This document shows positions 1 to 64,000 of a DNA stretch of 64,000 bases, one piece after another. Position numbers and translations under genes: made by a program. Source of the stretch: Bilabrum cf. latius (lineage: Eukaryota); NCBI GenBank assembly GCA_965178125.1, contig OZ237735.1, positions 1,922,001 to 1,986,000 on the forward strand, written 5' to 3'. Each line of letters begins with the position of its first letter. Positions within the stretch are counted from its first letter, which is position 1. The notes under the pieces are model-generated. The model saw only the letters and a program-made list of their open reading frames with translations. It searched no databases and was not told where the DNA came from.

Positions 1-1477
1 AATGATGCCACCTGACCCTCCAGCTCCTCCTGACGAGACTTGCCGCCAGACTCAGACTCACGGGCTGCCGACAGCTCCTCCTGCAATGACGCCACCTGAC
101 CCTCCAGCTCCTGCTGGCGAGACCCGGCCTCACGGGCTGCCGACAGCTCCTCCTGCAATGACGCCACCTGACCCTCCAGCTCCTGCTGGCGAGACCCGGC
201 CTCACGGGCTGCCGACAGCTCCTCCTGCAATGACGCCACCTGACCCTCCAGCTCCTGCTGGCGAGACCCGGCCTCACGGGCTGCCGACAGCTCCTCCTGC
301 AATGACGCCACCTGACCCTCCAGCTCCTCCTGACGAGACTTGCCGCCAGACTCAGACTCACGGGCCGCCGACAGCTCCTCCTGCAATGACGCCACCTGAC
401 CCTCCAGCTCCTGCTGGCGAGACCCGGCCTCACGGGCTGCCGACAGCTCCTCCTGCAATGACGCCACCTGACCCTCCAGCTCCTCCTGACGAGACTTGCC
501 GCCAGACTCAGACTCACGGGCTGCCGACAGCTCCTCCTGCAATGACGCCACCTGACCCTCCAGCTCCTGCTGGCGAGACCCGGCCTCACGGGCTGCCGAC
601 AGCTCCTCCTGCAATGACGCCAACTGATCCTCCAGCTCCTCCTGACGAGACCCGGCCTCACGGGCTGCCGACAGCTCCTCCTGCAATGACGCCACCTGAC
701 CCTCCAGCTCCTCCTGACGAGACTTGCCGCCAGACTCAGACTCACGGGCCGCCGACAGCTCCTCCTGCAATGACGCCACCTGACCCTCCAGCTCCTGCTG
801 GCGAGACCCGGCCTCACGGGCTGCCGACAGCTCCTCCTGCAATGACGCCACCTGACCCTCCAGCTCTTCCTGGCGAGACCCGGCCTCACGGGCTGCCGAC
901 AGCTCCTCCTGCAATGACGCCACCTGACCCTCCAGCTCCTCCTGACGAGACCCGGCCTCACGGGCTGCCGACAGCTCCTCCTGCAATGACGCCACCTGAC
1001 CCTCCAGCTCCTCCTGACGAGACTTGCCGCCAGACTCAGACTCACGGGCCGCCGACAGCTCCTCCTGCAATGACGCCACCTGACCCTCCAGCTCCTGCTG
1101 GCGAGACCCGGCCTCACGGGCTGCCGACAGCTCCTCCTGCAATGACGCCACCTGACCCTCCAGCTCCTGCTGGCGAGACTTGCCGCCAGACTCAGACTCA
1201 CGGGCTGCCGACAGCTCCTCCTGCAATGACGCCACCTGACCCTCCAGCTCTTCCTGGCGAGACCCGGCCTCACGGGCTGCCGACAGCTCCTCCTGCAATG
1301 ACGCCACCTGACCCTCCAGCTCCTCCTGACGAGACCCGGCCTCACGGGCTGCCGACAGCTCCTCCTGCAATGACGCCACCTGACCCTCCAGCTCCTCCTG
1401 ACGAGACTTGCCGCCAGACTCAGACTCACGGGCTGCCGACAGCTCCTCCTGCAATGACGCCACCTGACCCTCTAGCT
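1..1477. repeat. Coding tandem array of ~19 mixed 84-bp and 72-bp units
   Basis: Unit aatgacgccacctgaccctccagctcct(c/g)ctg(a/g)cgagac..., followed by either ttgccgccagactcagactca (84 bp) or ccggcctca (72 bp); copies are near identical. Confidence 0.95.
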
Positions 1478-3209
1478 TGTGCTGCAATTCCAGCTTGCTC
1501 TTGGAATGATCGTCGATCTCAGCCTTCAGTTTCCGTATAGCATTGGCAGCATTATCGATATCTGATTGTAGCCGAGTAGCCTCCGCTTCAGATGCCTTGG
1601 CCCGATCTGTCGCAGCATCTCGTTCCCCTTCAAGCTCTGACAACCGGGCACTGGCAGATTTCCAATCCGCTGAGCCTGCTGACTTCACATCCGTAATCTC
1701 TCGTCTGGCATCACGCAGATTGCTCCTTAGCTCCTCTTGCTCAGTTGCACCCGCCTGAATTAATTTCTCGAGATTTTGGATGTTCTCCATGAGTTCCTGC
1801 TGACGAGACTTGCCGCCAGACTCAGACTCACGGGCCGCCGACAGCTCCTCCTGCAATGACGCCACCTGACCCTCCAGCTCCTCCTGACGAGACTTGCCGC
1901 CAGACTCAGACTCACGGGCCGCCGACAGCTCCTCCTGCAATGACGCCACCTGACCCTCCAGCTCCTCCTGACGAGACTTGCCGCCAGACTCAGACTCACG
2001 GGCCGCCGACAGCTCCTCCTGCAATGACGCCACCTGACCCTCCAGCTCCTCCTGACGAGACTTGCCGCCAGACTCAGACTCACGGGCCGCCGACAGCTCC
2101 TCCTGCAATGACGCCACCTGACCCTCCAGCTCCTGCTGGCGAGACTTGCCGCCAGACTCAGACTCACGGGCCGCCGACAGCTCCTCCTGCAATGACGCCA
2201 CCTGACCCTCCAGCTCCTCCTGACGAGACTTGCCGCCAGACTCAGACTCACGGGCCGCCGACAGCTCCTCCTGCAATGACGCCACCTGACCCTCCAGCTC
2301 CTCCTGACGAGACTTGCCGCCAGACTCAGACTCACGGGCTGCCGACAGCTCCTCCTGCAATGACGCCACCTGACCCTCCAGCTCCTCCTGACGAGACTTG
2401 CCGCCAGACTCAGACTCACGGGCCGCCGACAGCTCCTCCTGCAATGACGCCACCTGACCCTCCAGCTCCTCCTGACGAGACTTGCCGCCAGACTCAGACT
2501 CACGGGCTGCCGACAGCTCCTCCTGCAATGACGCCACCTGACCCTCCAGCTCCTGCTGGCGAGACTTGCCGCCAGACTCAGACTCACGGGCTGCCGACAG
2601 CTCCTCCTGCAATGACGCCACCTGACCCTCCAGCTCCTCCTGACGAGACTTGCCGCCAGTTGCTGTCTAGTCCTTCGCTTGTGATTGGAATGCGATCAGC
2701 TGCTCCTCGGCTCGCTCGCACTTATTCTACCATCTAGATGCTTCAGAAGCTGCCATTCGCGCAGAGTCAGCCAATGCCCGGGATTGCTCTTCGTACTCCT
2801 TCCGTTGGTTTCTCTCATCGATCATCAGGGACTTAATCTTTTCATAAGACTCTCTTGCCACCTTGAGTCGATCTCTCAGCTTTGTATTCTGCTCCTGCAA
2901 GGCGTCAAGCTCGGTGCTGTCAACGTGTCTGCGGCCAGAGCGCTCAACTTCTACAGACTTTGGGCGCTCTTCAGACGTCTACGGTTCGTCATGGGTTTGT
3001 ACTTCAATACTAGATGGCTGATCGGGCTTGACATATTCTTCTTGCGCGGATGTAGGGCTACCCTCCATTTCTTGAGTATCTCCATCAGTTAAATCTGCCA
3101 GCGCCGAATCCAAATCCCCCAACAGCTATCCCCCGCGAGTCGCTGCATCATTTAAGGCAGATGAGGCAGATTCTGTCAAGGTTTGCAATCCACCCCATAT
3201 CCCAGCCAT
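1..3209 (-). CDS. Long coiled-coil (golgin-like) protein with internal 28/24-aa tandem repeats; 3' end lies outside the window
   Basis: ATG at 3209 (MAGIWGGLQTLTESASSALNDAATRGG...). The frame is open to base 1 except for in-frame TAGs at 3126, 2979, 2727 and 2667. The repeat translates as LQEELSAARESESGGKSRQEELEGQVAS, a heptad-like E/Q/L/R-rich unit. Not shown in the ORF track. Confidence 0.8.
1795..2659. repeat. Coding tandem array of ~10 copies of the 84-bp unit
   Basis: Same unit as 1-1477 but only the 84-bp variant; separated from the first array by ~320 bp of unique, in-frame coding sequence. Confidence 0.95.
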
Positions 3210-3338
3210 GAACAGCTAGATATCTGAAAATTCTCCCTTAGCGAGCCTAGGTTCCGCTACGGGTTCAACAAGTTGCGCGGCGCCACCCAATTGGTGCACC
3301 AGACATTATTGCTCTTTATCCGAGGCAAATTCGCCGTA

Positions 3339-5837
3339 ATGGCAACTGCAGGAATTGCAACGAGGGGCAGCCTTGACTTTGAGTTGGTACGACCGCTTGT
3401 TGCTTTGCAGCCACGGTTGCGAGCGTTTCTGGCTGGGGTTCGCAAGTCAGCAGCCTCCAGCACGGCAGCTGCTGCTGACCAGTCAAGCACAGGAAATAGC
3501 GAATCAGCACTGGAATAGCAGCACGTAGCACGCAAACGTCGACGAGTGGACTCGAATGCCGAGGCTGTGGACGAAACAAGGCATGCAGCCAGGCTGTAGG
3601 CTTTGCTTGAATCTGCTAGGGCGCGGCTCGCGGTTGCCGAGAGCACTAGATCTGAGGTATCTGCGCAATGTGCACAAGACGTGGCTGAGGCAGAAGCTGC
3701 GGCGCGGGATGCATCTGCGGCACTTGCAGACGCGACCAGGCGTGAATCTGAATCACGGACTAGACTCTCCGAAGCACAAGGGCGCATTTCTGAACTCGAA
3801 GCACGTGTTCGGTAGCTATAGCAGTCTTCTGAGCGCGTTGGGCCTTCCATTGACGTTGGTGCAGGAGTCGACTGGGACGACCTGAGTACGACCAACGCAC
3901 ACAAACAGCAACTCGTACAGCTGGAGAATGTCCTGGAGCAGCAAGCATAGAGAGCCAAGGAGCGCGAGCAGGCCCTTCAATTGGAGTTGTAGACCGCTTT
4001 GCAGGAAGCGGCGCAGGCATCGTCCCTGCGAAGGCAGCTGCACGCTGCGCAAGAAGCTAGCAAGCTCGCGAGGCGGCCGGCGGTGGACAGCGAATCGCAA
4101 GGCCCGGGAGTCCCTGCCTCGGAGAGTCCAGGCTAGGCTGGCGTAGATACACTTTGGAGATAGGCTGGACAGCTCCGTCAAGAGCTTCGCGATACGAAAG
4201 CCCGGCTGCGGGAGTCAGAGCGCCGGGTGGCTGGGCTCAAGGCCAACAGAGAGAACGAGACGATGCTGGCAGAGAGGGCCGGCTAGGCGGAGGCTGCCGC
4301 AAAGCGCTCTGAAGAACGGGTGCAGGGGCTGGTTTCCGAGCTGGCTCAAGCAGGAGGCGTCTTAGCAGATGCTAAAGAAGAGGCCGACCGGTTAATGGAG
4401 GCTGTGGGCGAGCTGGCGGCCAGGGAGGGTCTGAATCTCTCCTTACGCTCATCTCCGCGGAAGTCGGCTCTGTCTTTTCCCGACGATGCGCACTCTTCTT
4501 CCTCATCGGTGGCATCATCTTCATCAGATGCCTCGTCTTCCTTGTCCAGCAGACTCCCTATGCAGCACTTGGCCTCCCTGATCGACGCAGCCAAGGACGC
4601 CCGTGCTGCGCTGACCAGCATGTCAGCCTTACGAGCCGATGCCCAGCTTGCGTTGGCGCAGGTGAAGGAAGGGTGCGCTGGAGTAGAAGAGCAGCTGCGG
4701 CTTGCACAGTCGGCCCGAGACTCTGCCCAAGCGCAGCAAGCCGCAACGGAGTCGTCTCTATCCGAGTGCAAGAGGCAGCTAGAGCTGCAGAACAGGAAGA
4801 TTGACAGACAGCAGCGAGAAATCAATGGGCTGTAGGATCTCTTGAAGTCGTACGACGACGAGGATGACGCAGCTGCTAAGCAAGTGCAAGCTTTATCCTA
4901 GTCAGCCAGCATGTCTGACAGTCCATCTGCTGGTGGCATGCAGCACATCCAGTCGCCTGGGCAGCTGCCCGTGTTCTTGAGTCCAAGGTCAAAATCAACA
5001 GCTGCCCGAGTCTCTATGCTACAGGACCAGCTGGAGGAGTCGAAACGCGAGTGCGAACGCTTGCAGGGGCAGCTGAGAGACGCGTTGCCGGCCGACCAAG
5101 CAGCTGTCATTCGCGCCGAGCTCGAGGCAGCCCGGCGCGCCCGGAAGGTTGCCGAGGCAGAAGCAGCCCAGTTGCGCGGTGCTTCCAAGCCCAGCACGAG
5201 CGTTGCTTCGCGGCGAGCAGATGTGGACCGGGAGCCTGCGTCTGGCCTCGTGCCGATGCCCAACACCAGGATCGTTCACATGAGGCAGAACCCGCTGAAG
5301 CAAGCGATTCGACAACGGATGAAAGACGACAAGGAGGCGCGTCAGGCCGCAGCAACTGCAAGCTCTTCCTCTGCCGCCGCTAGTGCGGGGGAAACTGGCG
5401 AGGCTGCTGCCGCATCGGAGCTGGATGGCTCAATTCTGTAGACGGTGCAAGGCGCCCAAGCCGTTTCGACTATGGCTGAGGCGCAGAAGCTGAGGGAGCG
5501 GCTCGTCTCTCAATTCCAGCAGCGCATGCAGAAATTCAGGGAGATCATGTACAGGGTGCTTGGCTGGAAGGTATGGATGGAGGAGTCAGGCACGGTGGGT
5601 GCATTCCAATCGGTCTACGCAGCAGATGCGAACGACGTCGTGAGGTTCGGGATCAAGACAGCGTCCGAGCAGGAAGGCGGGGCAGCGGCGGGGCTTGTGG
5701 TTGAGCTGCTGAACACAAAGTACGTCAGGGAGCTGGACGATGATCTGCTGCAGCTCGTGCACAGGTATGGTAGCTTGCCCGCGTTCATGGCCAACTTGCT
5801 GGGAACGCAGTTCTCGCAGTCCACCACCGGCATGTGA
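3339..5837 (+). CDS. MAD1: Spindle assembly checkpoint protein MAD1 (832 aa with TAG=Gln)
   Basis: ORF fragments 3273, 3603, 4320, 4911 and 5445 share one frame and are separated only by TAG (about a dozen). C-terminus shows MAD1 motifs TRIVHMRQNP, RERLVSQFQQRMQKFREIMYRVLGW, FQSVYA and SLPAFMANL. Ends in TGA. Confidence 0.88.
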
Positions 5838-6005: not shown

Positions 6006-8093
6006 TTACTCGTAGATGGGAAAGAAGCAGCCGAAGGCCAGCTCGCAGAAAACACCTGGGTCGTTGTACCGCTTGCCCAAGTCCAGCTTCTCGATCGCCG
6101 CGAGGTCCTCCTCGTCCAGCTCGAAGGACTGAGAGGCCAGGTTCTCGTACAGACGGTGCGCCTTGCTGGTCTTTGGCACAAGAGTGGTCCCTCGCTGTAC
6201 TCCCCAGCGCAGACACACTTGGGCAGGCGATACGCCGTGCTTTTCGGCGATACCACCGATCACCGGCGACACCAGAACTGAGTCTGTGGCTGTGGCCATA
6301 CCCAGCTCGACGTACGAGCCAGAGCCCAGCGGCGAGAACCCAGTCACCACAATGTCATGCTCCCTGCAGAAACGCAGCAGCTTGTTCTGCTGCAGCTGAG
6401 GGTGCAGCTCCACCTGAAGCACCTGCGGCTTGATACGCGCGTAGGACAGGACTTCCCTGACGCCCTGCGTGTTAAAGTTCGACAACCCGATGTTGCGCGC
6501 CTTGCCCGCATCCACGAGTGCCTCCATGGCCTGCCAGGTCTCCCGCATGGACACCGCATCGGGCTCCATCTTGGGACTCTCCGCCTTCTCGTCGTAGATC
6601 CACCCCGGCGGGTACCTCTCCTCCATGGGCACGAACTTGAGCGCAATGGGGAAGTGGATGAGGAAAAGGTCAACGTACTCCAGGCCCAAGTCCCTCAGGG
6701 TGCGCTCCATGGCGGGTGCCACGTGCTCCGTCTTGTGGTACGTGTTCCAGAGCTTTGACACGATGAACAGCTCCTTCCTGTCCTGGATGTACCCCCTCCT
6801 CAGCGCCAGAGCGATGCCCTCGCCCACCTCCTTCTCGTTGCCATAGTCCTGGGCGCAGTCCAGCTGCCTCCAGCCGGCGCGGATGGCATTTGCGACCTGC
6901 GAGGGGCACACCTCGTTCGGCACCTTCCACATACCGAGACCCAGAGTCGGCATCTTGTCTCCAGTCCGAGGGAGCGTGCGGGTCGGCAGGGCAGCAGCCG
7001 CCTCGAGTGCCTTGGCCTTTGTGGGCAGGATGCCCCTCCCGATGGCTGCAGAGACCTTGCGCTCGCCCTCGAACGGATTGCGAGCGTGCATGGTCACGTG
7101 GTTGTTCACGAAGATCACGTCGCCTTGCTACCACTTGACGGACACCGCCGAGGCCATCGCGAACTCGGAGATGGCCTTGAGGGCCTCTGGATCAACCGCC
7201 TCCCCGTTACCGAGGATGACGGCCTTGGTTGGATCCGGGTTCCTGGAATCGATCCAGCCGTTGAAGGCGGCTACCACGCTGTTAAAGAACACTTCTTCCC
7301 CCCCGTCGTAGCCCGGCCCGCCCGGAGCCTTTCGGATGGCGGGCAGGGCCTTGGTGGTGGTGCGGACTGCAGCGTCCTCGCCCTCTCCCAGCCACTCGAA
7401 CTCAGTGCCGGCTGCAGCCATGGCCTCCTCGGCTGCCTTACGGGTACCGCAATTATATGTATTTTTCCAAGAGCGGCCGATCGCGCTCTTGGGGTCGTCT
7501 TCGGCGGGCATGACCCGGACATATCGCACACCATGCTCAAGCATGCTGGCGTGCAGCTCCGGGTGCTTCTCCTTTACGTATGCGGCGATCGCACGGGAAT
7601 CGAAAAGAGGCGTTTCGCCCCCCTCCTTCGCTGGCACCTTGCAAAAGAAAGCGATGCAATCCGGAGGGTTGTCAGTCTGGCTCAGCTCGTGGTGTGGTGG
7701 GATGGGTTCGGAGCTCGGAGATTCATTGGCAGTCAACACCACACCCTCCACCAAGGGACGGCGCACCGCGGCCCCACCGATGTACGGCATAAGCGCCATC
7801 TAGAATGACTCGAACACGGACGCAAACTCCTCGACCGACTTCAAGCCGAAGCCGCGGAAAAGGATCGCTCCGTGCTCATGCGCAAGCTTCAGCATAGTGT
7901 CTCGCTGTTCGGCCACGTACGACGCTAGACCGACTGGGCTCGCTGTGCTACTACCATCATTAGGCTGCAGTGCGATCGGAAGGACATTGCCGTTGGAGTT
8001 CTTCTTCTATTCGGCGATCGCTGTTGCGATCACCTCCGGAGAGAACACTCCCGAAAGCTTGCTTCCTGAGCCAGATCCTGCTACTGCGGCCAT
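6006..8093 (-). CDS. Fusion of TauD/clavaminate-synthase-like Fe/2OG dioxygenase and aldo-keto reductase (695 aa)
   Basis: ATG 8093; one frame with TAG at 8007, 7800 and 7128. N-half: HGAILFRGF, PYIGGAAVR, IPPHHELSQ, GGETP, W*QGDVIFVNN, HARNPF. C-half: GLGMWK, LDCAQDYGNEKEVG, SKLWNTYH, LFLIHFP, IGLSNF, VPKTS. Ends in TAA. Confidence 0.9.
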
Positions 8094-14201: not shown

Positions 14202-14282
14202 AAAATGCTCTCTGGTCGCACGGGAATTCGGAGCCTTTTCCGTTGAATCGTCGCCGAGTTCCACAGCGATTCCAAGCACAAC

Positions 14283-14836
14283 ATGGCGGCATCTGGATAC
14301 GTAGCAAAGCCTGTGGAAAAAGGAAAGCATCCGGTCAAGCCTGCGCCTCACAAAAGGTGGGGCAGACAGCGCGACAATCGCATGTCTACCCAGCCGTTTG
14401 CACCACATTAATGCTTCGCTACCTATGTTCATCGCGCAGGTTTCCTGTTGACGCTGCTTAGGCTTTAATGAAGGAAGTTCTTAGCGAAAAACTCAAGGCG
14501 CGTCCCGACTACAATACGGAGATGGGGCGCGAGCTTGCCGAGGAAATTAAGAAGCGATTAAAAGGTTGGATAATTTTGCACAGACAGCCTGCCGCATTAT
14601 TCTCATGAACCCGAGTGTGCGACATTATATTATCCTCGAATGCAATGTCCGCAGGATTGGATCTCCCCAGGTTCAAGATTTTGGTGAAGGTGGTAGTTGG
14701 GGAAAATCGTGGCGAAGGAATTCGAATCGGAAGCAGATAGTTTTGGGACGAGACTACGGACGCCATGGCCACAGAATCATTCGTAAATGATAAGGTTTTC
14801 GCCTGTGCGACGGCGTACGCCGTGTATTTGCCTTAA
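14283..14836 (+). CDS. Tctex1-domain dynein light chain (TCTEX1D2-like)
   Basis: Introns 14357-14439 and 14565-14654. Product MAASG...RFPVDAA*ALMKEVL...LPRFKILVKVVVGENRGEGIRIGSR*FWDETTDAMATESFVNDKVFACATAYAVYLP-TAA. Missed by the ORF track. Confidence 0.85.
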
Positions 14837-16402: not shown

Positions 16403-19400
16403 ATGGCCTCTGCAGTTGCAATTAGCGCGGCGAGGCGCGGCCAAACTGATAGGCAACATCGAGCAGATGAAGAGCGCGATGCGGACCGGTACGATGATGG
16501 AGACTTCGGCAGAACTAGTAGTAGCCGACAAGGACGCCAAGACACTAACCCTTTCGCTGCAAGGCAGAATGCAGACGATTCGCAGCAGCACACAATTGCT
16601 AGGTCAATGCTAGCAAGCTAGTTGAGACAGAATCCCGATCTGATCCGTCAAGTCAAGGACCCGGAGGCTCGGCGACACCTGGAAGAGGCTCGTGATTTTA
16701 CTGCCAAGGCCAAGGCTGCAACGCAGCGAAACTCCGCCACACCGGATGTGAATTTGCCGCCCACTGCCGACGATCAAGACAACGATCCAGATTATGCGCT
16801 TACCAATGAGCAGCGCTCGATGGTATCTCGAGGTGGAAGAATGCAGGCCTGGCGGGAGGACATGTCACCGGAGGAGCAGCGCAAGCTCGACCTCGCTATC
16901 AAGGGGCAGCTGCCCAGAACTGTAGGATCTGGCGGCAGCGCAGACAAGCGCAGGAGGAGAAGCAGCGCTGCTGACGCTCTCCTGCAGGCCTCTCGCAACG
17001 CAGACAGCGCAGCCGGCGGTTCGGTACTCTCCCAAGGGGCCCTGCGCTCGGCCACTGCCGGCTCCTCGAGCAAGAGCACGAGGACGGTGGCTGAGAGCAA
17101 GGTCGGGCCCAGCGGGACCCGGCGATAGTCTAGGCGGTACTCCATGCGGTCGCAGGGCTCGAAGCGCCCAGGTGCAGACGATGATGACCCGGGAGTAGTC
17201 CAGAGGGGGGGGCAGGTGATGCTAGGGTACGACGAGCAGCCCTGCGTGATACCTCAGAATCACCCTTTCATGCGGGGCTGGGACGTGGTCATGCTGGCCT
17301 TGCTCGTGTTTACTGCGGTGGTGACCCCTTTTGAGGTGGCCTTCCTGGCGTCAACGGAATACGATGCCATGTTCTTCGTGAACGTGGTGGTGTCTATTCT
17401 CTTCCTCTCCGATCTCGTGATCAACTTCTTCCTGCCTTACACGGACATCAAGACCGGCGTGGAGGTAGATGACAATATTGATATTGCGTACAACTACCTG
17501 ACCGGCTGGTTTGTGCTGGATTTCGTCTCGATCTTCCCCTTCGACGTGATTGCAGCAGAAACGGGCGGAGAGGAGACGGCTGGCAGGCTAAGGATCATCC
17601 GCACAATCCGGCTGCTAAAGTTGGCGAAGCTGTTGAGAATTGTGCGTGCCAACCGGATCTTCACGAGATGGAGAAATCTCATCGGGCTCACGTACAGCAT
17701 GGTCCAGCTGCTGCAGTTCCTGGTCGTGATCATGGTGCTGGCCCACTGGAGTGCTTGCGTGTTTTACCTATGGAGCTCTCTGTTCATGGATGACTACGAT
17801 ACGTCTTATATTGCGGAGGCTGGACTCGTCGAGAGTAAGCCATGGACATCGTACCTGGTTTCCCTGTATTGGGCCACGTGAGACACATCCCTTGCCGTTG
17901 GTGCCTCGCGCTAGTCCCATTTCTCGCTGTCTACTTGTACTGCTTGGTTCGTCTCGCACACGTGTACTCCATACTCTCGCAGGGCTACGATCAGTACAAT
18001 CGGTTATGGCGACGTGAATCCAGTCAATACTGCAGAGCGTGGGATGGGCGTGCTGCTGATGCTGATCGGTGGCGGCCTGTACGCGTACACCGTTGGTGCA
18101 GTCTATGGGCTCATCTCGACGTACGACGGCGCCACCATCGAGTACAGGAGGATGCTTGACAACTTGAACATGTACACAAAGGAGTACAAGCTCCCGCCTG
18201 ACCTGAAGCAGGACCTCCGGGACTACTTTGGCCATTGCCAGAAACTGATGCGCGCGCAGTTCTACCGCGACCTCTTGCGGCAGATGTCACCGGAGCTCCG
18301 GGGCCGCGTGGCTAGCTACTTGCACAAGCCGTGGATCAGTCACATTCCGTTCTTCAATGTGGACAAGCCATCTGAGAACAAGGCCTTCATCACAGCAGTT
18401 GCCATGAACCTGGAGGCTGCCGTGTTCGCCAGGAAGGAGCACGTGGTGAGGCAGAACGAGACGCTGACCAAGATGGTTATCATCTAGAAAGGCCTCGCCA
18501 CACGGTGGGATACAGGTCAGATTGTCCGCAGGGGTGCATTCTTTGGGGAGGAGATGATCATGAGCCGGGCGCAGTCACACACGACCTACCAGGCCGTGAC
18601 TTTCCTGGACGTGTACTTCCTAACAAAGAAGTCCCTGCAGCGCATTTTGGAGAGCGGCGACTTCGAGAAGACCAGACAGAAAATTCGGTTCGCCATCATT
18701 CGATTAGCCCTTCGACGAGAACTGAAGCTGGCCATGGCGCTGATCCGAATGCAGAACTCCATGCTGGGCCAGCAGCCGGGTGTGGCGAACGTGCCCGGTG
18801 CGACCAACGCTATCGCGCGTGGCGGCTCAAATGGCTCCATGGACGCATCGGGAGAGAAAGAAGTCACGAACACCACGGTGGGTGGTGCTGTCGCTCAGAT
18901 TAGCGAGATGGATTCGCAGTCTGACGCAGCCGGAGATGCTCGCCTCGTCACCAGCAAGAGCATCCGAATGGCCAAGGAGCAGCAGGAAGAGGCTGCCGAG
19001 ACCACTCAGATGACGAACCTCACTGAAATTTTGATTCACAAGGGTTTAGTGAAGCGAGACTTTGTGGAAATGAAGCGAAGGAGCTCTGTCGCTGCCACGA
19101 ACCAGCTGTGGAGACGGAACTCCAAGTCCAGTGATGACCCCGAACGACAGGAGGCGAAGAAGAGGGCGAAAGAGGCAGCAGAGCGGCACGCCAAGATGAA
19201 TCCCGACTACCAGCGACTATTGGATGCTTCGACTCCCTCGAGTGGGGCTGGATCTGGTGGCTTCTCGCCGACTCGAAAGTCAAAGCGACACGGCAGCATG
19301 ATCGTGCAAACCAAGGACCCCCTGCTGCCCGAGCAGCCACATCTTCAGGACATCCAGGCCGCCCGTGCTAGGGTTCGGTGGATGAAGGAAAACGGAGAAA

Positions 19401-29200: not shown

Positions 29201-30723
29201 CAAGGTAGGTAGCAGCGCTGGCGGCATGCCTACGGCATCCGCAGCACGTGTTGCCTGGGCGCGGTCGGGCATGCGCATTCGAGCAGCACGACGAGCGCGA
29301 GCTGCCGCGAGGTACGGCTCCTGTCGCGATCCAGAGGCAGAGGCGGGCACTGGCCCCTCCTAAAGAATCGCAGCAGGGGCGCATTTAAAGAACGCGTGCT
29401 GCAGAGTGGCTGATGCTGTCGGCCGGTCTGCCGGCACCAACGCGAGCATTCGAAGCAGAATGTCCCTGCCGTCCGGACACAAGCAGCTAAGCGATGCCTC
29501 AAAATCGGCCCGCAGCCCACTTGCTGCTGCAACATCCCCCTCTCGACTGTCACCATCTCCACCGCGTCGAAGACGAGACGCCGCCCTGGCAGGCGAGCCC
29601 CCTTTCTCGAGAGGTGACACGCCGAATAGCATCGTGTACAGCAAGCAGCCGGCAGAGAACACATCGACTGCCGTCGTGTGTGGACTGCCTCGTGCTGGGC
29701 GTGATACTTCTGGTGCCGTGTATTGCGGCGTCCCGCAGACAGTGTAGTGCTCGCGGGCCGCTTCAGCAGCGCCGAGCCCTGGCCTAGCTACACCGGCCTG
29801 CCCTTCGCCAGGGACAATCGCACCCAGCTATGTGTCAGCCGGTACTGCAGGCAGCTGGCTGGCCAATCCAAAGTCTGCGAGCACCGCATCTACGGTTTCG
29901 AGAGCCCCTCCGTGCAAGATCACATCGTCGCATACGGGCTGCCTTAGCAGAACGTTGGACAGCTTCAGGTCGCGGTGCATCACTCCGCCCTCGTGCAGGT
30001 AGGCCAGCGCCTGCAGCAGCTGGCGCAGCAGCTCGCGGGCGAGTGTAGGGTGTAGTCGACACCGATGAAAATAGCGAGGCACCCCGCGGGATGCCACCGC
30101 AGGCGTGCATGTTTCCCGCTCCCGCAGCGCTGCCGCACGCCGCAGCAAGCCGAACACATCGCCACCGCGGCATACCTCCATGACAACCAGCACGTGGTGT
30201 GAGGTCTCACCAAAGTCCTGCAATAGTTTGCAAGAATCGAGCACACAATATAGGTTGGAAAAAAAGTGCAAATTTAGCCGGGCCACGGACGTAAGGGTTG
30301 GTTCGCTCACGCGCATGGCGACAATACGAGCATGTCGACACTTAGCCAGCAAGTCTATCTCATTAACAACTCTGCGGCGAAGAGGCTTCGACCGCATTCG
30401 TTTTTTCTCTATTACTTTAACGGCCACATGCTGACTGCGATGGAAGCGGAAGTACATGTGTTCGCTCAATCAACAAAATTCGAATCGGCAACTGGCGTGG
30501 GGGCGCTTGGCAATGCTTGGGGACGCATTCATACCCGCCTGCGGTGCTGCACTCGTAAACAACACCGAATCCACCATGCCCGAGGACACGAATCGGCTCT
30601 AGCTGCCGCGACTGTGAAGCATGAATCGAAAGTGCCACTAGCAAGGAATATGCGCGCATAGTACGAACGGCTGGCATTGGCGTGTCTCAAACTCACCTCC
30701 AGGCTACGTTTTGAATCACTCAT
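26270..30723 (-). CDS. PLK4: Polo-like kinase 4 (PLK4/SAK-like), 3 introns near the 5' end
   Basis: Kinase: LGHGGFGVVY, VAVKVIEKKRM..RRVVNEI, HRDLKLSNVLL, LADFGLA, HYTVCGTPQYTAPE. Read-through of many TAGs reaches cryptic polo-box-like motifs (PVNVSHLGPADFKT; HELPPICRRLYRVGSEF; CTWMCDGPLPT) and a PB3-like end (GDL*FSFSDGRRLFV...LPDPVMQRL). TGA at 26270. Confidence 0.8.
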
Positions 30724-44400: not shown

Positions 44401-45320
44401 CCTCCAAGACACTGGTGCTGCGGCCGCAAAGCCGGTGAGCCACCCGCGCGAACGGCTCCTTCCGATTCAAGCGTGGCCCGAAGAAAATCTCCCAAATAGA
44501 ACACCTGCCGATCAAATGTAGCGGTATTTGCAACCTCTGTAACTACCATGCCTGCCGGTACGAAAGATGACGTTGTATCTGTCGTGTTTGAGATGCCCCT
44601 GGATACTTGTTGGAACCTACCGTCAGCAAAGCCAGCATATATTGAATCTACGGTCGGGTCTGCAACCAGAATATCTATAAATGCTTGGATTGTCGACCGA
44701 GACCCGAAACAAATGGAAGGACGGATCTAGTCCTGAAAGCCTTGGGGCAGACCCGAGCTTGGGTTGTTAACCGCCGACGTGTTGAACGAGTCCACTGGCA
44801 ATCCACTCAGCTGTTGCAAGGCCCTAAGGGCTCTATCCTTCGAAACTGAGTCAAGTGCTAAATCCAGCTGGACTGCAACTTCTGATCCTGCTGCTTGGGC
44901 CAGGTCGCGCGTCAAATCGGCTGCGAGTGCGTTCGCCTCCCGTACCTGCAGGAATCCCACCGTGACAGATGCTAAGCTTGGGGCCAGGGCTAAGATAATG
45001 ACTACCGCTACGATTCTCCAGTCCATGCAAAACATTGACATGCTTAAGCAGACTGGACGGCAGGAATCGCAGACGATACAGTGCTCCCAACAGCCGAGGT
45101 CGAATGAATCGTCTTGCTGTGGGGCTACATCTGCTTTGGCATAGCTACGCTGTGGATGAAGACGAAGATGCTTGCGCTAAACTTTGCCTTTTGGCGTCTT
45201 GACCACGCCACGACCGTCACCTCCGTGGCTAGCATCAAGGTCGGTTCCCGCAGAGGACTGGGCGGTGCTTGGAGCCACTGCCACGCTTTCGTGCGCAGGT
45301 CCAGGTGCTGGCTATGCCAT
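38457..45320 (-). CDS. Membrane receptor-type 3',5'-cyclic nucleotide phosphodiesterase: TM-dCache-TM-long linker-class I PDE (~2287 aa, intronless)
   Basis: Eight ORF fragments share one frame separated only by TAG. Cache motifs SIYAGFADG, SSRPWY, FTTPYQF and AVLGIDI lie between two TM helices. PDE motifs YHSAVHGSDV, HDVAHP, LESYH, LATD, IKCADIGH, EWSRRVVTEFYRQG and SQCGF. TGA at 38457. Confidence 0.85.
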
Positions 45321-51073: not shown

Positions 51074-54000
51074 ATGACTCAACCGTCTTTTCGAGACAGG
51101 CTAACTCGTCCAGAAAGACTAATGCTTAGCATTGATGCGGATAGCATACGTGCTAGTGCTTCTCATGGCAGCACTGGGGTACGTCGAGTCTCACCTACTG
51201 GGAGCACGAGGCGGCCTGCACATGTGCAAACTGCAACTTCAGAGCAGTATGGGGACAAACCGATGACACTTAACGAGCTTGGAGGCCACAGCTCACTATC
51301 ATAGGGGCATAATCACGATGATGGTGCTTCGAGGGTGGTGAATAAAGCCCAGTTAGTGTTTGGCGGCTCTTCCACTGGAGCAGGATTGGCAGCCACAGCT
51401 CGTGCTCTGCGACAAGATGCGGAAGAAGCCAAAGAATCTGAGATTGCATCATTGCATAAAATTCGAGATCCAGCCAGATCGGCTACGCTGGGCTCGCCAT
51501 ATGCGTACCCAAGATCAGGCCTGCAAGGCTCGCAATAGCACGGCCCCGGCGCTCTGCATGCCGCCGCCGAGCTGGGCGCCACACAGACGGCTGGGTTCGC
51601 GCAAACACTCAGCCCTTCTAGGCTACAAGTAGTTCAGCCAGCTCCTCAGGATGCGCAGGGCTGGCCATTGCTGCATGTGGGGCGCTCCGGCGCGCATGAT
51701 GGCAGTGCACTGGCAGGGGCTCGCGCTGCCACTGGGAACCCCATGGACGGCTCCTTCTCCAGGGAAACCGCAGGGGCAGTTGCTGTTAGGGCTGCGATGG
51801 TCAAAGCCGAGCTGCGTGGCACTGCGCAGCAGCTGGCCCTACACAACCAGCAGGAGAGAGTCGATTCGGTTTTGGCCCAGTCGCAGCAGACCGTGGAGAT
51901 CAGCCGTGCCAGGGGCCTGGCTCGCACTGCCGAAAGGGAGCTGAATGCGCAGCAGGGCGAGCTCACGCGACTGAGACGGAAGATCGGAACTTTGACAGGA
52001 AGCAACGCGGTGTCTGCAGCTGAGCGCGAGCTGCTTGAGGGCAGGGTCGAGGCTGAGAGGCGGAGGCTCAGGGGGAAAGAGCAGGAGGCCGAGGAGCTCG
52101 AGGGTGAGCTTGCGCAGAGCATCGGCTTGGCCGAGCAGCAGCAGACCAGGCTAGAGGCACTCGTTCGACGGGTGTCAGAGCTGGAGAAGCAGTCGAAAGA
52201 AGACGCTGCGACTGCCCGTGTCATGGAGGATAGGCTCGAGTCCGCTCGAGCTGACGCGAGGGCCGAATGGGAACCCCGGCTGGAGGCAGCGGAGAGCAAG
52301 GCAAGGCGGGACGAAGAGCAGTACAGAGGGCTACTCGACTCGCAAGAAAAGAAAGCTGCAGAGGATAGACTGGCTGCCTCCAAGACGATCAACCAGCTAG
52401 AGCGCGAGAGACAGGACCTACAGAATAGCGTCGCAAGGCTAGGTGCAGAGCTGCAGACCGCCAGTTCAGAGGCGGAGTCCTGTGCTCGCCGGGCGGAGCG
52501 CGCCGAGGCAGACGCAGCCGGATCAAAGGCCGAGGCGAAGGTAGCCCGGGGTGAACTCGAGCGTGCGGACGAGCGCCGCAGGCAGGCAGAGGAGGCTGCA
52601 GCCGCTGCAGAACGGGACAGGCTGGGCTTCGCAGCTGGGTAGGCAAGAGCAGAAGAAGAGGCTGCTTTGCGTAGGAAAGAGGCAGATGACAGCAAGGTAC
52701 AACTGAAATCTTTACAGGATCGCTTCGACGAGATGCAGCGGTCCTAGTTGGAGCAGCTGGAGGAGTACCGGTAGTCTGCGGAAGCGCAAGCACAGTAGTC
52801 TGAGGTTCGTGAGAATGAGCTCGCGTAGGCAGCGTCAGAGGCAAAATAGCACTGGGAAGAAGCAGAGGAAGAAGCAGCTAGGCTGCGAGACGAGCTGGAG
52901 CTCACAAAGGGGAGGCACGAGCACTTGGCTGCGCAGGCAAGCGATGCACAGGCTGAGGCGCAGGAGCTCTCCAAGGAGCTTGAGACTGCTCGCGCAGAGT
53001 CCAGGAAACATGCCGATGATATTAGTAAGTAGGAACAGCAGCTGCAAGACATGTCTGCTCGTGAGGCGACGCTGAAACAGGAGCTTGCTGCATCTGAGCG
53101 ACGGGCAGACGAGGCACGTGCAGCCGCAGACCGCGCCATAGCCCAGCTTGCAGACGTCTAGGCAGACAAGTCAAAATCCGGGCGCAAATCCAAGACAATT
53201 GCTGCCCTGAACGACAAGATCCATGACTTGGAGACTAGGTTGCGGGATGCCACGGAGCACTCAGGAGGAAAGGGTCGTGACTCGGGTTCGATGATGCCAG
53301 GGACACCCAATCTCGGCAAGATCGAGCGCGATCGCATGGAAGCATAGCTGAGTCGATCTCGCTCGGAGCTAGAGGCCGCAGCCACAGAGCGGGATGAAGC
53401 TAAAGCGAAGCTACGAATGCATGCGGCCCGCGAGAAGGAGCTGAAGAGGCGGCTTGCGGAAGCTGCCGCTGCATCCGAGCTGAAGAGGCGTTCTTCGTCT
53501 CGCAGGCTATTTCGAAAGGAATCCGAGGCTTCTGAGCTCACCTTGGCGGCCGAGACAGTAGGTGGCACCGGAACAGGTGTTTGGTAGGGTCACAGGTCTA
53601 TCGGCTCCTAGGCTTTGGGCAGCAAGATGCGCTCGTCGCAGAGGCTGGCGAGCGGCTCGGCGATGCCTGCCTCTCCCGTGTCATCCCCTGCTACTGGCCA
53701 GAATGGATTGAAAAGAGCGCTCTCCGCCAGCTCCAAAGCGGTATTTGCCTCGCTGCGGTCTCCTGGCGCGAGTTCCTTTGGCCGGGAGTCGGTCGCCAGC
53801 GTAGGCAGCCCCTTGCGACGGCGGGTAACCTTTACTTCGACCCCACGAACGACAGCTTCGAGCTCCCAACTAGATGGCAGTGCCACCTCCCACAAAATGT
53901 CTCCCCGAGATTCGAGAGGCCAGAGGCAAGCGCACGACTCGCTCGGACTGGAGGACGTTGAGGAAGTGCACGAATACGATGAGGGCAGCGATCAAGCCGA

Positions 54001-56500
54001 GGAGCGTCAATCTACCGGCACACTGGGGGCTAGCCTTAAGTCAGATCGCCTGGACGGAGTTGTGTCGTCGGAGGAAGCAAAGCTCGGGTCGGGAAAGAGA
54101 AGTACGTTGGCTGCGCAGCAGCACGAGACGATGCACAACAATAGCCGGAGCAGCCCAGCGAGCGAACAGCAACACCGAGAGTTGCGACAGGATTTGCAAG
54201 AGCAGTCGAATCTTGCCCGTGGCCTGGAAGCATCAAATGCTGCTCTTGCGGCGCAGCTCGAGGCAGCACGGCTACAACTCGAGCAGCTGCATGAAGCTGA
54301 CGAGACGCGGCAAGCCGCTGAGGCTGAGGTGAAGCGGCAAGACACCGAGCTGCAGGACATCAGGTTGAAAGCAGCGGGGCTTGAGGCTACCAGCCAGGCG
54401 GCCGAGCGCCGGATCAAGCAGCTAGAGGAGGATATTGATCGTCTGGAGAAGGCTCGCGATGAAGCCGCTGCTGCGCGAGACAGGGCACAGACCGAGATTG
54501 AGTCCTTGCAATAGGAGCTCGCTACCTCGCAAACCCGTTTGCAGCAGTCCCACTAGCAGTTGTCCCAGGCGCAGGCAGACGCGGCCAAGCAGCGTAGGTT
54601 GCACCGGAGAGAACTGCGATCGTCTGCTGCAGGTGGTCTATCGGTACAGCCTCGAGTATCCTGGGCCAGCCCGAGCCGAGCGCTGTATCGCCGTGCCCTA
54701 CTATCGCCACCCCGAGCAGGTGCATCGCCTGGTTCCGGTCCTCGGAGCATGCTGGGGTCGCCAGCACGACCTGCATTGAGCGGCCAGAATCAAACACTTG
54801 ACGACCCTGAGGCAATCCTACACAAAGCGGAAGCCACCTTACGCGACGCCAAGGAACAAATGGGCAAGCTCACCGTGAGGCGCCAGGCTGTACAACGCGA
54901 CGCATCGATTCAGCCTACTGCCCAAGGAAGCCGAGGCTCCGGCTCTGGTGGCTTTCTAGGCCTCTGTATGACTGCAGATGCTGCCATTGCTGCTGCAGAG
55001 CAGAGCAGAGACGCAGCGATGATGGCAATTGGTGCATACCGAGAGCTTCTCGCAGAGTACCACGCAGCTGTGCAAAGAGGAGACCTTGATTCAGAATCGG
55101 ATGCATCCACGGTAGGAACCGCGGAGGAAAACGTCGGTGGACCCGCGATACCGCCGTTCCCTGCTGACGTGCAGTTGTTCGCTCAAGCTGCCGACAGGTG
55201 TAGAGGTGCTGCAAACGCTGCGGTTCAGGCCGCCATCAAGGTGCCACTATCAGCTGGAATGGTGGCGGACGCAGCCGAAAGTGAAGGTGCTCGAGCGCAG
55301 AACCAGGCTGGGCCACACCGAGGGCCTGCTGCGGGTTTCAGCTAGGGTGCCAGCCATGCGGCTACGCTAGAACAGGATCACGTGCCTGGTGCAAGTCAAG
55401 GGCAGCGCCAGCCGCTAGAGCTCGGGACGGAAGAAGGACGGACAATTTTGGACGGGGCTCTTCAGCGATCAGCCAAAGCTGGCCCTCCACACCCAACCAC
55501 AGAACGGCGGACCAAAGAGGAAGAGGCTGGTGGCTCTCCCGTCCGGCCTTGGAGATCGTTGTACAAGCAAGGGGCATCGCAAGTGGCAGCTGCTGGGGCA
55601 TCACCCCGTGGCCTCGGGAATCTTGACAAGTCTGTGGCCGTGGCGATCAGGCAGATGGTGCAAGGCAAGCCCACAGGGAGCAGCGAGGGACAGGGCCAAA
55701 GGGCTGCTAGAGCCACGGATGCTGAAGTGTCTTTCCTGCAAGATGAAGGTGGCTTGGATCGGCCGATGGCGCCCAGCGATCTGTTCATCGAGCATTCCGA
55801 TGGTGGTAAGCAGCCCGCAGTGGTGCGTTCCAGGGACGCCTCACCCGCAGGCTCCACAGCAGACCCCCAGTCCGAGCCAGCCCCCCACGGTGACAGCACC
55901 CGCACATCACGCTCCATGCCTGCGAGGCAAGCTAGACGATCTCGTGCCGGTGCCCTTCTCTCTGGGTCGCAGCACGCTGTCCAGCTGGCATGGGAGCACA
56001 TGCAGAGGACTGCGGCCATGCACAAGCACTCGTCGGGCAACTCGTACCAGCAGGCCGCTGGGTCAAAGGCAAACGGGGCTTTCTTGACGGATGCTCAGCT
56101 GTCACCCATGGCTCTGCGTGCAGAAACGCGGTTGGAGTGGCTGGTTCGGAGGCACGCTGCCGTGCTCGACACGCTGTCTAGGCCGCGGGTCATCGAGTCG
56201 ATGGGAGCCGAGGCAGCTGCCAGGCTGGACCACAGAGTCAAGCGTGCGTCTGCTGCCCTTGCAGACTGCCACTCGCTGCTGAGGATGGCCAAGGAGGCCG
56301 CCCAGCATGGTGCAACCCATGGCTCTGGAGCGATGCAGCCAGGCAGCCAGCACAGTCCAGCTCAGCTAGCAGCGGAAGGTCGGTTTGTCGTGTCGGTGCA
56401 TGCCGCAGGAAAGGCGGTCGAGGCGGCGGAGGGCCTGTCGATGCAGCCCGGTGTCACTGGAGCTGCGGTAGATGGCTTGAGGTTCGGGTCGTTGGCTTGA
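51074..56500 (+). CDS. Large coiled-coil protein (~1808 aa)
   Basis: ORFs 51074, 51335, 51668, 53615, 54560 and 55382 are one frame, and the gaps contain only TAG stops within E/Q/R/A-rich heptad sequence (e.g. RS*LEQLEEYR*SAEAQAQ*SEVRE). Ends in TGA. Confidence 0.8.
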
Positions 56501-61339: not shown

Positions 61340-62947
61340 ATGGCTGCAGTTGCTGGATCTGGCGACGGATCAGCTGCGGAGGGGAGCTCTGCAGCGTTGA
61401 GTTTCAGCGGTGCAGCGAAGCGGGCCTCTGCAAGCTCAGGCGGACCATCTATTTCTGATCGAGGGGAGGGTAGTTCGGCGGCTGCAGGCGGCTCTCGTGG
61501 CGACTCTAAAGAATCTAGGAGGGGTGGTGGCAAGCGCGGGCGCGGTGGGCGTGAGAAAACGCTGAACAAGCAGGGACTGTTGCCAATCGCGTACTCGATG
61601 CGCAGACGTGCTTCCACCCCGTATCCAGACGCGCTCCGTAAACTATCAATACATACACTTAATATGCTTCCTGTCGTGCAGGCAAAGGCGAGCCCGGGCT
61701 GTATCAGACGAGCGAGGGCGTTGCGGTCATCCCAGAGTTCAAGGATATGGGACTGAAGCCCATGCTTCTCAAGGGTATCTATGCCGCAGGTATGTGTAAA
61801 CAATTCGTATTTTTGCGTCTACTTCGTTCCAATTTGTGAGCCCGTTTGACTTTCTTTGGGTGAACAAAATCGCCTCGCAGGCTTCGAGAAGCCGAGTGCC
61901 ATTCAGCAGCGCGCAATCGCACCGATTACGAAAGGCCGGGACCTTATCGCGCAGAGCTAGTCTGGCACAGGAAAGACTGGTGTGTTTTCCATAGGATCTC
62001 TGCAGATTGCAGACACTTCAAGCCCAGAAACCCAGGTTCTGATCTTGTCACCCACTCGCGAGCTGGCCGAGCAGACACAGAGGGTCATCTGCACGCTGGG
62101 TGACTTTATGAGCGTGCGATGCCACGCCTGTATCGGTGGAAAGAGCGTGGGAGAAGACATCAAGAGGCTGGAGGCCGGCGTGCACATCGTCTCGGGCACT
62201 CCGGGCAGGGTGTTCGACATGATCCGGAGGAGGCACCTATCGACCTCGAAGCTGAAGCTATTCGTCATCGACGAGGCGGACGAGATGCTAGGCTCGGGCT
62301 TCAAGGAGCAGATCTACGACGTGTACCGCTTCCTGCCATCTGGGTGCCAGATCGTGCTCGCCAGCGCGACGCTGCCCAAGGAGGTGCTCGCCATGACGGA
62401 CAGCTTCATGACTAGGCCCGTGCAGGTGCTGGTGAAGAGAGACGAGCTGACCCTGGACGGTATCAAGCAGTTTTTCGTCGCTGTTGAGAAGGAGGAGTGG
62501 AAGTTCGACACGCTGACCGACCTATACGATACGCTCACCATCACGCAGGCCGTCGTCTTCTGCAACACGAGGAAGAAGGTGGACTGGCTCAAGGCGAAAC
62601 TGAAGGAAAACAACTTCACCGTGTCTGCCATGCACGGAGACATGAAGCAGTCCGAGCGGGAGGAAGTGATGAGCGAGTTCAGGGCGGGTGCCACCCGTGT
62701 GCTGATCGCGACGGACGTCTGGGGGCGGGGCATCGACGTGCAGCAGGTGTCGCTCGTGATCAACTACGACCTTCCCTCTTCCAGGGAGCTGTACATCCAC
62801 AGAATCGGTCGATCCGGGAGGTGGGGCCGGAAGGGCGTTGCGATCAACTTCGTCAAGTCCGACGAGCTGCGAGCGCTGCGAGACATCGAACAGTTCTACG
62901 CGACGCAGATCGACGAGATGCCCATGAATGTTGGCGAGCTGATATAA
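61340..62947 (+). CDS. EIF4A3: Exon-junction-complex DEAD-box helicase eIF4A-III, 2 introns
   Basis: [72 protein letters not shown] and C-terminus [12 protein letters not shown]. Confidence 0.96.
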
Positions 62948-63098
62948 ATACCTTGAACTGTTCGTGTCCGATATTTCTGCCATCTTTGGAAGCTCTGTCT
63001 GCTTCGGACTGATGACGGCCACAAATTCCGGTCCTGCGAAATTGCAGAACACGGGATCGCCTCGAGACTCTCAGTGCGTCCGGCGACACCGGGACGAA

Positions 63099-64000
63099 AT
63101 GTCGGAGAACCAGCATTATGGCGCGAGCATTGGCACAGCCATTGCAGGCGCAGCCGCTGGATTTGGCGTTGGAGCAGCTTGCGGGTACATGTTCAGGAGC
63201 GTGAGGCTTGTCCTGTCCGTTTCCCACTCTAAGCCATTCCATTGCCCGCAGCCCGACCGAATAAAAATGATTCGTTGCATGTCTCCCGAGGTTAATTCCA
63301 CTGAATACTTTTTGCGCGAATTAATCAAACCCTTTGGATAGTGTCGGTTCACACACAAGCGTTGATGGATCCCCATTCGCGTCTACGCAGTCTGGAGGCG
63401 AAATTGACAAGGGCATACCGTCGAGCATAGTAGAAACAAAGGGAGTTTCAGAGGCCGTTGCCCTCCGCAGGGCGGCCGAGCTGGACCTACTGTCGTCGGC
63501 GTATGAACTGCTGGCCCTGGCTACAAAAGAAAGCGGCTCCCTCTCTGCCCAAGTCTATGTCGTAGATCAGCCTACCGGACTCATTTTCCGTGGCTATGGT
63601 GTGACAGACAAGGGATATCCTCTGCTGTCGAGCAGGGAAGAAGACACGGAGCCGTTCAGCGTTGAGTGCGACGGCTCCAGCCTGGTCGGACACAGCGCGA
63701 CGATGGGCACAACAGTAGTGGCTGAATCATCCGATCGTCGCTCTGACGCTGATATGCCGAGCTCCAGGAGCCAAGCCAAGGCTGCTGGATCGGCGGACGC
63801 GGGCGAATCGATGGAACGCATCACGAAACCGCCTGGCGGCTACGTTGCTTGCGTACCTCTGACCGGCTACCACGAGAACGTCAGTTCCATCTAGGTGGCA
63901 TCCGCAAGCTACGGTGGCCCTGCATCTCCCAGCATGTCCGGTCTTGGAAGCAGGGCCGGCATCATCGCGATTCTCCGGGTGACGTTCGCGATGATGCCGA
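63099..64000 (+). CDS. N-terminally anchored protein with a GAF-like domain (partial; runs off the window)
   Basis: Hydrophobic GAAAGFGVGAACGYMF; intron 63201-63390; VYVVD...SLVGHSATMGTTV...VACVPL pattern; continues through TAG at 63892. Confidence 0.55.

Follow-up and report, generated by a model that had tools for sequence, protein, structure and literature searches.

UAG very probably encodes glutamine, with UGA and UAA retained as stops, in a 64-kb stretch of GC-rich nuclear DNA

The presence of in-frame TAG codons in nearly every gene of a 64-kb stretch of contig OZ237735.1 (positions 1,922,001–1,986,000 of the forward strand, assembly GCA_965178125.1, Bilabrum cf. latius; hereafter the window, whose own numbering is used throughout) raises the question of whether UAG still serves as a stop codon in this genome and, if not, which amino acid it specifies. 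The window has a guanine plus cytosine (GC) content of 54–61%, contains no N, and is gene-dense, with eukaryotic genes on both strands. An original prediction made from the letters of the window held that UAG is read as glutamine (Gln, Q in the one-letter code used below) while UAA and UGA remain stops. The analysis reported here upholds that reading through open reading frame (ORF) structure, domain continuity, homologue columns containing Q, the Q residues of near relatives, C-termini ending on TAA, and spliced contigs: it is very probable that UAG has changed its meaning from stop to glutamine, and that termination is left to UGA, the main stop, and UAA, in nuclear DNA with short GT-AG introns.

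Codon counts in a set of 20 gene segments, comprising 15,880 internal codons, showed that the three triplets are very unequally distributed: 104 TAGs were recorded in frame, with at least one in 19 of the 20 segments, compared with no TAA and no TGA, while the same segments contained 254 TGA, 50 TAA and 164 TAG when read in frame +1, and 397 TGA, 69 TAA and 137 TAG in frame +2. The zero counts for TAA and TGA are partly circular, because the segments were picked as frames free of these two triplets; support that escapes this circularity is provided by ORF lengths, by Pfam domains that cross TAGs, and by TAA or TGA stops that agree with the C-termini of homologues. The three longest frames between stops in the window measure 888, 750 and 516 residues when read with the standard code, and 2303, 1881 and 1399 residues with TAG taken as sense. 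Taking TAA alone as sense had almost no effect, the longest frames remaining unchanged at 888 residues.

Pfam searches and homologue alignments were run with each TAG written as X, in order to keep the choice of residue unbiased, and six domains were found to run across TAG codons. These are TauD (residues 57–346) in a fusion with an aldo/keto reductase (AKR; 6006..8093, minus strand, 695 residues, with Aldo_ket_red at residues 384–671); Cupin_8 (residues 57–270) in a Cupin_8/JmjC-like protein of 770 residues (33377..35689, plus strand, TAGs at 33572, 33797, 33962 and 35513, TGA stop); NADAR (residues 99–268) in a NADAR-domain protein (32465..33415, minus strand, TAG at 33017–33019, TGA stop); DEAD (residues 17–179) in the last exon of an eIF4A3-type DEAD-box helicase (61850..62947, plus strand), in which the TAG at 61958–61960 lies within the P-loop; PDEase_I (E 2e-52) in a cyclic-nucleotide phosphodiesterase (38457..45320, minus strand, 2287 residues, 14 TAGs, TGA stop), the frame of which is the longest in the window only if TAG is sense; and Methyltransf_10 (E 2e-54) in a METTL16-like RNA methyltransferase (35879..38221, plus strand, 780 residues, eight TAGs, TAA stop). 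The contention that TAG is present in nearly every gene, and that the fragments join into full-length proteins, is thereby borne out, the domains and the ORF lengths both agreeing with the 104 in-frame codons.

The TAG sites named in the original prediction, at 61958 (plus), 33017 (minus), 7128 and 8007 (both minus) and 14738 (plus), were all correctly located, and the TauD gene contains a third, at 7800 (minus). A run of glutamine codons cited in the same context, TAG CAG CAG CAA, is indeed present at 13250–13261 on the minus strand, where it may be coding. TAG makes up 104 of the 893 putative glutamine codons in the gene set, and its counts by decile along the length of the genes (16, 13, 9, 14, 12, 9, 9, 4, 10 and 8) reveal no 3'-depleted zone; an even spread combined with a share of that size agrees better with a settled reassignment than with occasional read-through. 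In these genes TAG is sense.

The residue that it specifies was approached by counting homologue residues at 16 TAG sites, four further sites in the METTL16-like protein being dropped as they fell in insertions that were mostly gap. The P-loop TAG of the eIF4A3-type helicase coincides with Q in three of the three alignments shown, all with human eIF4A3 (best PDB match E 3e-178), and residue 141 of the Cupin_8 protein coincides with Q in six of six homologues. At TauD residue 322, the TAG at 7128, Q is present in 65 of 119 homologues and, among 13 environmental orthologue loci with the same fusion, in five, the remainder having T (three), S (three), A (one) and E (one). The NADAR site is occupied by Q in one of two solved chains, Escherichia coli YbiA, and by M in the other, 8bau. 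Per-site likelihoods summed over 14 sites placed Q first among the 20 residues, ahead of the next-ranked (A, or A and E) by 6.0 nats at a pseudocount weight of 1 and by 2.4 nats at a weight of 5. The mean column frequency of Q was 0.173 at 11 TAG columns, compared with 0.194 at columns where the window has glutamine coded by CAA or CAG and 0.031 over all 1064 columns; the corresponding values at TAG columns and own-residue columns were 0.121 and 0.363 for E, and 0.109 and 0.24 for K, no residue but Q approaching its own expected frequency at TAG columns. Judged from these alignments, glutamine fits the TAG sites better than any other residue.

A number of columns nevertheless weigh against that assignment. 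At TauD residue 29 the homologues have E in 83 cases of 119, with G in 10 and Q in nine; at residue 441 of the METTL16-like protein they have V in 20 and I in 12 of 45, with no Q; the site in the Tctex1-type dynein light chain, the last exon of which occupies 14609..14836 on the plus strand with its TAG at 14738–14740, has C in 112, Q in eight and S in seven of 150 representatives; the site in the phosphodiesterase catalytic domain has L in all five PDE4 chains shown; the Fcf1 site has S, G and A; and the GRASP site has R and E. Most of the TAG sites, moreover, fall in variable columns, among them TauD residue 98 (D 38, G 27, E 20, Q 6), Cupin_8 residues 66 (K 2, H 1, D 1) and 196 (T 3, R 2, V 1), and METTL16 residues 71 (K 14, R 11, Q 3), 371 (A 13, P 9, Q 1) and 732 (R 11, K 10, Q 3). 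A profile-based score likewise separated Q (−31.65) from K (−31.89) by only 0.24 units. The column evidence alone is therefore moderate: the profile score scarcely parts these two residues, variable sites are in the majority, and E, V/I or C prevails in three conserved columns. The proposal that TAG occupies conserved glutamine positions held for eIF4A3, for TauD residue 322 and, in one of two chains, for NADAR, but not for TauD residue 29, where the column is dominated by E. An earlier worry over the cysteine column of Tctex1 turned out not to be a contradiction, as Q is the second most frequent residue there and one of its eight occurrences belongs to a relative 88% identical to the window protein.

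Proteins of near relatives, drawn from Logan, JGI and ENA assemblies and compared as proteins rather than as DNA, constitute the strongest single line of evidence for glutamine. Two proteins from Logan assemblies, P0001 and P0323, are identical to residues 99–695 of the TauD-AKR fusion at 586 and 587 of 597 positions, respectively; both begin at the ATG directly following the window TAG at residue 98, and both have Q at residue 322, where the window has TAG. A JGI/IMG protein, P0173, is identical to the Tctex1 exon at 44 of 50 positions and has Q at the TAG at 14738, a position at which 75% of the family has Cys. A start immediately after a TAG is the behaviour expected of a gene caller working with the standard code, and the Q residues of these relatives would therefore most simply be CAA or CAG. 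That they are ordinary CAA or CAG codons, and that the gene callers applied the standard code, are both inferred from database proteins, which counts somewhat against the argument, as does P0125: this protein, identical to the Cupin_8 protein at 345 of 400 positions (86%), ends where the window has GAG and, if its end were a TAG, would pair TAG once with Glu. It is probable that the relatives at 98%, 86% and 88% identity use the same code and have been wrongly annotated as fragments. Their database proteins were observed to start or stop at or near window TAGs. Ten ORF fragments of the window, as delimited by the standard code, were looked up in the protein collection, and none had an exact entry there.

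The fusion of TauD with an aldo/keto reductase also occurs in 13 environmental contigs (L001–L013), TARA scaffolds among them, at 43–57% identity. The best locus, L001, came from a metagenome scan with a 60%-identical fusion protein, P0004; it lies on a 12.5-kb contig of 77% GC, its protein is 57% identical to that of the window, and the C-terminal motif of the fusion protein is nearly identical in it. No Pfam family was found in the other six long frames of L001, which is uninformative as to the code of the relatives.

The alternative that survives best, improbable as it is, accepts TAG as sense but has it specify another amino acid (Glu, Lys or Ala) or be read ambiguously by near-cognate transfer RNAs (tRNAs). 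Precedent exists in the codes of peritrich ciliates and of Blastocrithidia, described as reading UAR (R being A or G) as Glu, and the E-dominated column at TauD residue 29, the near equality of the profile scores for K and Q, and the standing of A and E as runners-up in the site likelihoods all lean in that direction. It is opposed by the great rarity of E, K and A at the Q-dominated columns (eIF4A3, Cupin_8 residue 141 and TauD residue 322), by the attainment by E and K of only about one-third to one-half of their expected own-residue frequencies where Q reaches 0.173 against 0.194, and by the Q residues that near relatives have at window TAG sites, one of them in an otherwise 75% Cys column.

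With glutamine as the preferred meaning of UAG, the status of the other two triplets was established from gene ends. For 19 segments the stop lies within the window; it is TGA in 16 of them and TAA in three, the Tctex1 exon additionally ending on TAA; the TGA that follows the stretch 16403–17881 of a channel gene probably lies in an intron. The alignment of the eIF4A3-type helicase reaches the last residue both of that protein and of human eIF4A3, and a TAA (62945–62947) comes next; the TauD-AKR fusion ends on TAA at the same residue as its 98%-identical relatives P0001 and P0323; and the Tctex1 exon ends on TAA (14834–14836) at the same residue as its 88%-identical relative P0173. Alignments to homologues and the codon check thus confirmed the prediction that the conserved C-termini of eIF4A3, AKR and Tctex1 end exactly on TAA. 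A search for hidden in-frame TAA produced 10 junctions at which a TAA is flanked on each side by 100 or more open codons, none of them inside recognised coding sequence: eight were antisense to known genes and two lay in the intron-rich stretch at 10.8–13 kb. Were TAA to specify glutamine in the same manner as TAG, about 35 in-frame TAAs would be expected from the ratio of TAG to CAG (104:589) and the number of CAA codons (200), and none was seen. TAA and TGA still terminate translation, TGA being the main stop. A code with both UAA and UAG as Gln (UAR = Gln, NCBI table 6 type) was ruled out by the absence of in-frame TAA, by the lack of any gain in ORF length, and by the TAA at three conserved C-termini.

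Slightly less probable again than a different amino acid is a dual meaning, TAG being Gln inside genes but a stop at some 3' ends, as in the ambiguous codes of certain ciliates. Two genes lend it some colour, and to that extent tell against a purely sense codon: in the METTL16-like gene a TAG stands two codons before the TAA stop, and in the gene at 31345–32337 another stands five codons before the TGA stop, so placed that sequence does not decide which triplet is the true end; a frame ended by TAG would, in addition, be invisible to the ORF criterion applied here. Set against this are the even spread of TAG by decile, with no depletion near 3' ends, and the gene ends that can be checked against the C-termini of homologues, four of four (eIF4A3, TauD-AKR, Tctex1 and Fcf1) falling on TAA or TGA.

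Reading of TAG as glutamine further requires that the codon be present in the transcripts as well as in the assembly. A search of public sequencing runs returned matches in six studies, with no RNA run labelled as such among the matches listed, and four runs from three studies were compared with the window over positions 26001–46000. The contigs of all four are identical to the window over that interval, save for one C>G at 40209 confined to a single contig of run X6 at a depth of 4, which may be an error. Since the runs match the window apart from this one base, no TAG-to-CAR exchanges were obtainable, and the strain substitution test accordingly yielded none for the four runs over this interval. 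Contigs of run X5 contain five joints that skip 85–104 bases, each bounded by GT..AG in the orientation of its gene: three introns lie upstream of the large 3' exon of a protein-kinase gene on the minus strand (30217–30309, 30435–30534 and 30612–30696), and two lie upstream of a plus-strand gene of unassigned family (30932–31035 and 31131–31232). None of the five coincides with TAG codons. The depth of run X5 also differs several-fold between genes, and on account of the splice joints and this unevenness the run was taken to contain complementary DNA. Its automatic label, 'RNA? (probably DNA)', is a guess that points the other way.

Two X5 contigs with splice joints cover TAG codons. The first, with the joints of the kinase gene, covers 29682–30216 with no other letters and retains the TAG at 29828; the second, of 2009 bases with the two plus-strand joints, covers 31233–33075, again with no other letters, and retains the TAGs at 31348, 31894, 32320 and 33017. 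Five TAG codons are consequently unchanged in contigs with splice joints, which bears out the expectation that TAG would be found in transcripts and is hard to reconcile with editing, with assembly error or with removal in introns. TAG is present in mature messenger RNA, given the RNA nature inferred for run X5. Single X5 contigs were also seen to cross opposite-strand neighbours, over 36737–45385 (the METTL16-like and phosphodiesterase genes) and 31233–33075 (the unassigned-family and NADAR genes), which suggests overlapping 3' ends or the presence of some DNA in the run.

The notion that there is no change of code at all, and that the TAGs reflect sequencing or assembly error, C-to-T damage, pseudogene decay, RNA editing or splicing, is scarcely credible, having nothing specific in its favour beyond default doubt and the guessed label of run X5, while the same letters recur in contigs from three other studies, spliced contigs retain the TAGs, the five introns of 85–104 bases do not coincide with them, and the confinement of in-frame triplets to TAG, with never a TAA or TGA in 15,880 codons, is incompatible with pseudogene decay and with general C-to-T damage.

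As to the means by which UAG would be read as glutamine, a tRNA-Gln(CUA), a requirement deduced from other UAG-to-Gln lineages, would decode UAG and be unable to pair with UAA; it could most simply have arisen from tRNA-Gln(CUG) by one anticodon change, and glutaminyl-tRNA synthetase would have to accept it. The N-domain of eRF1 would no longer recognise UAG efficiently, and new TAG codons would be expected to arise mostly through CAG-to-TAG transitions. That tRNA-Gln(CUA) reads UAG and not UAA, and that motifs of the eRF1 N-domain are altered in lineages with reassigned stops, are both points made in the account of Panek et al. (PMC5304391). Within the 64-kb window no tRNA gene was found by ARAGORN or by Rfam at gathering thresholds, a result that lends the scheme no help, and the eRF1 gene does not lie in it. 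On the tentative reading of a young origin set out below, the relatives at 98% and 88% identity would still have an ordinary glutamine codon at some of the TAG sites, so that the replacement of CAG by TAG would be in progress and could be followed from strain to strain.

The type of code is already known (NCBI table 15 type). According to Panek et al. (2017, PMC5304391), the fornicate Iotanema spirale likewise has UAG as Gln and UAA as a stop, and the same mechanism was predicted for it, namely a tRNA-Gln(CUA) derived from tRNA-Gln(CUG) together with a change in eRF1. UAA is nonetheless given as the dominant stop of Iotanema (PMC5304391), whereas in the window TGA follows 16 of 19 segments and TAA three of 19. 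The GC content of 54–61% is a further point of difference from Iotanema, and the oxygen-dependent dioxygenases that the window encodes (TauD and Cupin_8/JmjC) may be another. The ciliates Hartmannula sinica, Trochilia petrani and Protocruzia tuzeti are assigned by McGowan et al. (2024, PMC11687900) to table 15, with UAG as Gln and UAA as stop, and around 58–70% of their internal UAGs are given there as falling at conserved Gln positions. In the two phyllopharyngeans, however, 93.5–100% of C-terminal alignments are stated to end on UAA (PMC11687900), where TGA is dominant in the window. The impression that the organism looks like neither Iotanema nor a ciliate is supported by its main stop, TGA being unlike both Iotanema and the phyllopharyngeans, but falls short of a formal exclusion of identity with Iotanema. 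Ciliate macronuclear DNA, for its part, is unlike a 64-kb, GC-rich, multi-gene contig with introns of 85–104 bases.

Stop-to-Gln reassignments that include UAG occur also in the aphelid Amoeboaphelidium protococcarum, hexamitin diplomonads, oxymonads, ulvophytes and many ciliates. In Amoeboaphelidium, an algal parasite and the one alga-associated lineage outside the ciliates with a stop-to-Gln code, as in the other UAR codes, UAA and UAG are both reported as Gln (PMC6299283, PMC5304391, PMC11687900), in contrast to the TAA stop of the window, and the two Amoeboaphelidium genomes are listed at 40.5% and 39.9% GC (Table 1, PMC10608142) as against 54–61%. An aphelid had come into consideration through an algal-culture context and through the AKR half of the fusion protein, the top PDB matches of which are D-xylose reductases, yeast enzymes. 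Amoeboaphelidium was rejected as the lineage on the grounds of GC content, of the TAA stop, and of a single-gene quick tree of METTL16, itself weak, in which the window protein fell on a long branch outside a clade of fungi plus a nematode (support of 96 in the Shimodaira–Hasegawa-like approximate likelihood ratio test). Two low-share rows among the run matches bear the labels algae metagenome and protist metagenome; the comparison left them out, and they have no bearing on habitat.

The rhizarian exLh (UAG = Leu) and Scotinosphaera (UAG = Ser) resemble the window in that UAG is uncoupled from UAA in a non-ciliate nuclear genome, but differ in the amino acid; in the 14-site likelihood, Ser ranked fifth at both pseudocount weights, and Leu eighth at a weight of 5 only. 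In the ambiguous codes of Condylostoma and of karyorelict type, the same codon is both sense and a true stop; in the window, all checkable ends fall on TAA or TGA, and two genes have a TAG two and five codons ahead of the stop.

An independent reassignment is plausible, the placement of the lineage being weak, and the code is probably carried here by a lineage without an earlier description of it. Full-text searches of the literature, covering main texts, turned up no account of a GC-rich organism in which UAG alone is read as Gln. The fuller proposal, of a young and independent origin of UAG-only Gln, is tentative, standing a little short of an even chance; the lineage would lie outside both ciliates and opisthokonts, be GC-rich and contain introns, with UGA as its main stop and without named public proteins. 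UAA and UAG nearly always change meaning together, the split codes noted in the cited accounts being those of Iotanema, a rhizarian, Scotinosphaera and a few ciliates (PMC11687900, PMC5304391); a further UAG-only case, with UGA as the main stop in a GC-rich genome, would be an additional, independent observation. Two questions on which it bears are how recognition of UAG by eRF1 can be lost and that of UAA kept, and whether the UAG-only route is favoured by GC pressure, under which TAA is rare and CAG common. In practical terms, annotation of the genome with the standard code would break most of its genes, and the database proteins of the relatives are visibly truncated at such sites.

The remaining genes of the window are described from left to right. 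A coiled-coil gene cut by the left end (3–3209, minus strand) contains four TAGs, and repeats at 57–2659 made up of tandem units of 72, 84, 156 and 228 bases, in up to about 19 copies with 80–98% matches; its opposite strand is likewise open over long stretches. A copy-to-copy (paralogue) test was impossible in this gene, all four TAGs lying outside the repeats. It is followed by a MAD1-like mitotic checkpoint gene (3339..5837, plus strand) that encodes 832 residues, with 12 TAGs, a TGA stop and a match to Pfam MAD at E 1e-12, and then by the TauD-AKR gene. The stretch 9700–16400 has a lower GC content (0.54–0.55) and many short exons, the rest of the window consisting mostly of long, intron-poor frames; within it lie ion-channel exons on the minus strand, the Tctex1 exon, and a putative short-chain dehydrogenase with a TGA stop, recognised by reading of the translation only.

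Beyond this intron-rich stretch, a gene for a cyclic-nucleotide-gated-type channel (16403..21340, plus strand; Pfam Ion_trans and cNMP_binding) comprises the stretches 16403–17881 and 18044–21340, with two and seven TAGs, respectively, the intervening segment being interpreted as an intron. An aminotransferase gene (21520–23220, minus strand; Pfam Aminotran_1_2) with one TAG, and an FkbM-type methyltransferase gene (23375–26026, plus strand; Pfam Methyltransf_21) with two, both end on TGA, as does the large 3' exon of the protein-kinase gene (26270..30214, minus strand; Pfam Pkinase), which contains 17. The plus-strand gene of unassigned family already mentioned, at 31345..32337, is succeeded by the NADAR and Cupin_8 genes, a divergent pair in which the longest frames beginning with ATG share 39 bases at their 5' ends, so that at least one of the true starts probably lies downstream of the first ATG.

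In the right-hand part of the window, an exon of an Fcf1/Utp24 gene (58048–58470, minus strand; Pfam Fcf1) and one of a GRASP55/65 gene (59741–60433, plus strand; Pfam GRASP55_65), each with one TAG, precede that of the eIF4A3-type helicase. A second coiled-coil gene (51074..56500, plus strand; 1808 residues, 16 TAGs, TGA stop) belongs to no Pfam family that could be found. No Pfam match was obtained for the long N-terminal part of the phosphodiesterase, which is unusually long at its 2287 residues; its catalytic domain is C-terminal and is interrupted by a low-complexity insert of about 130–140 residues.

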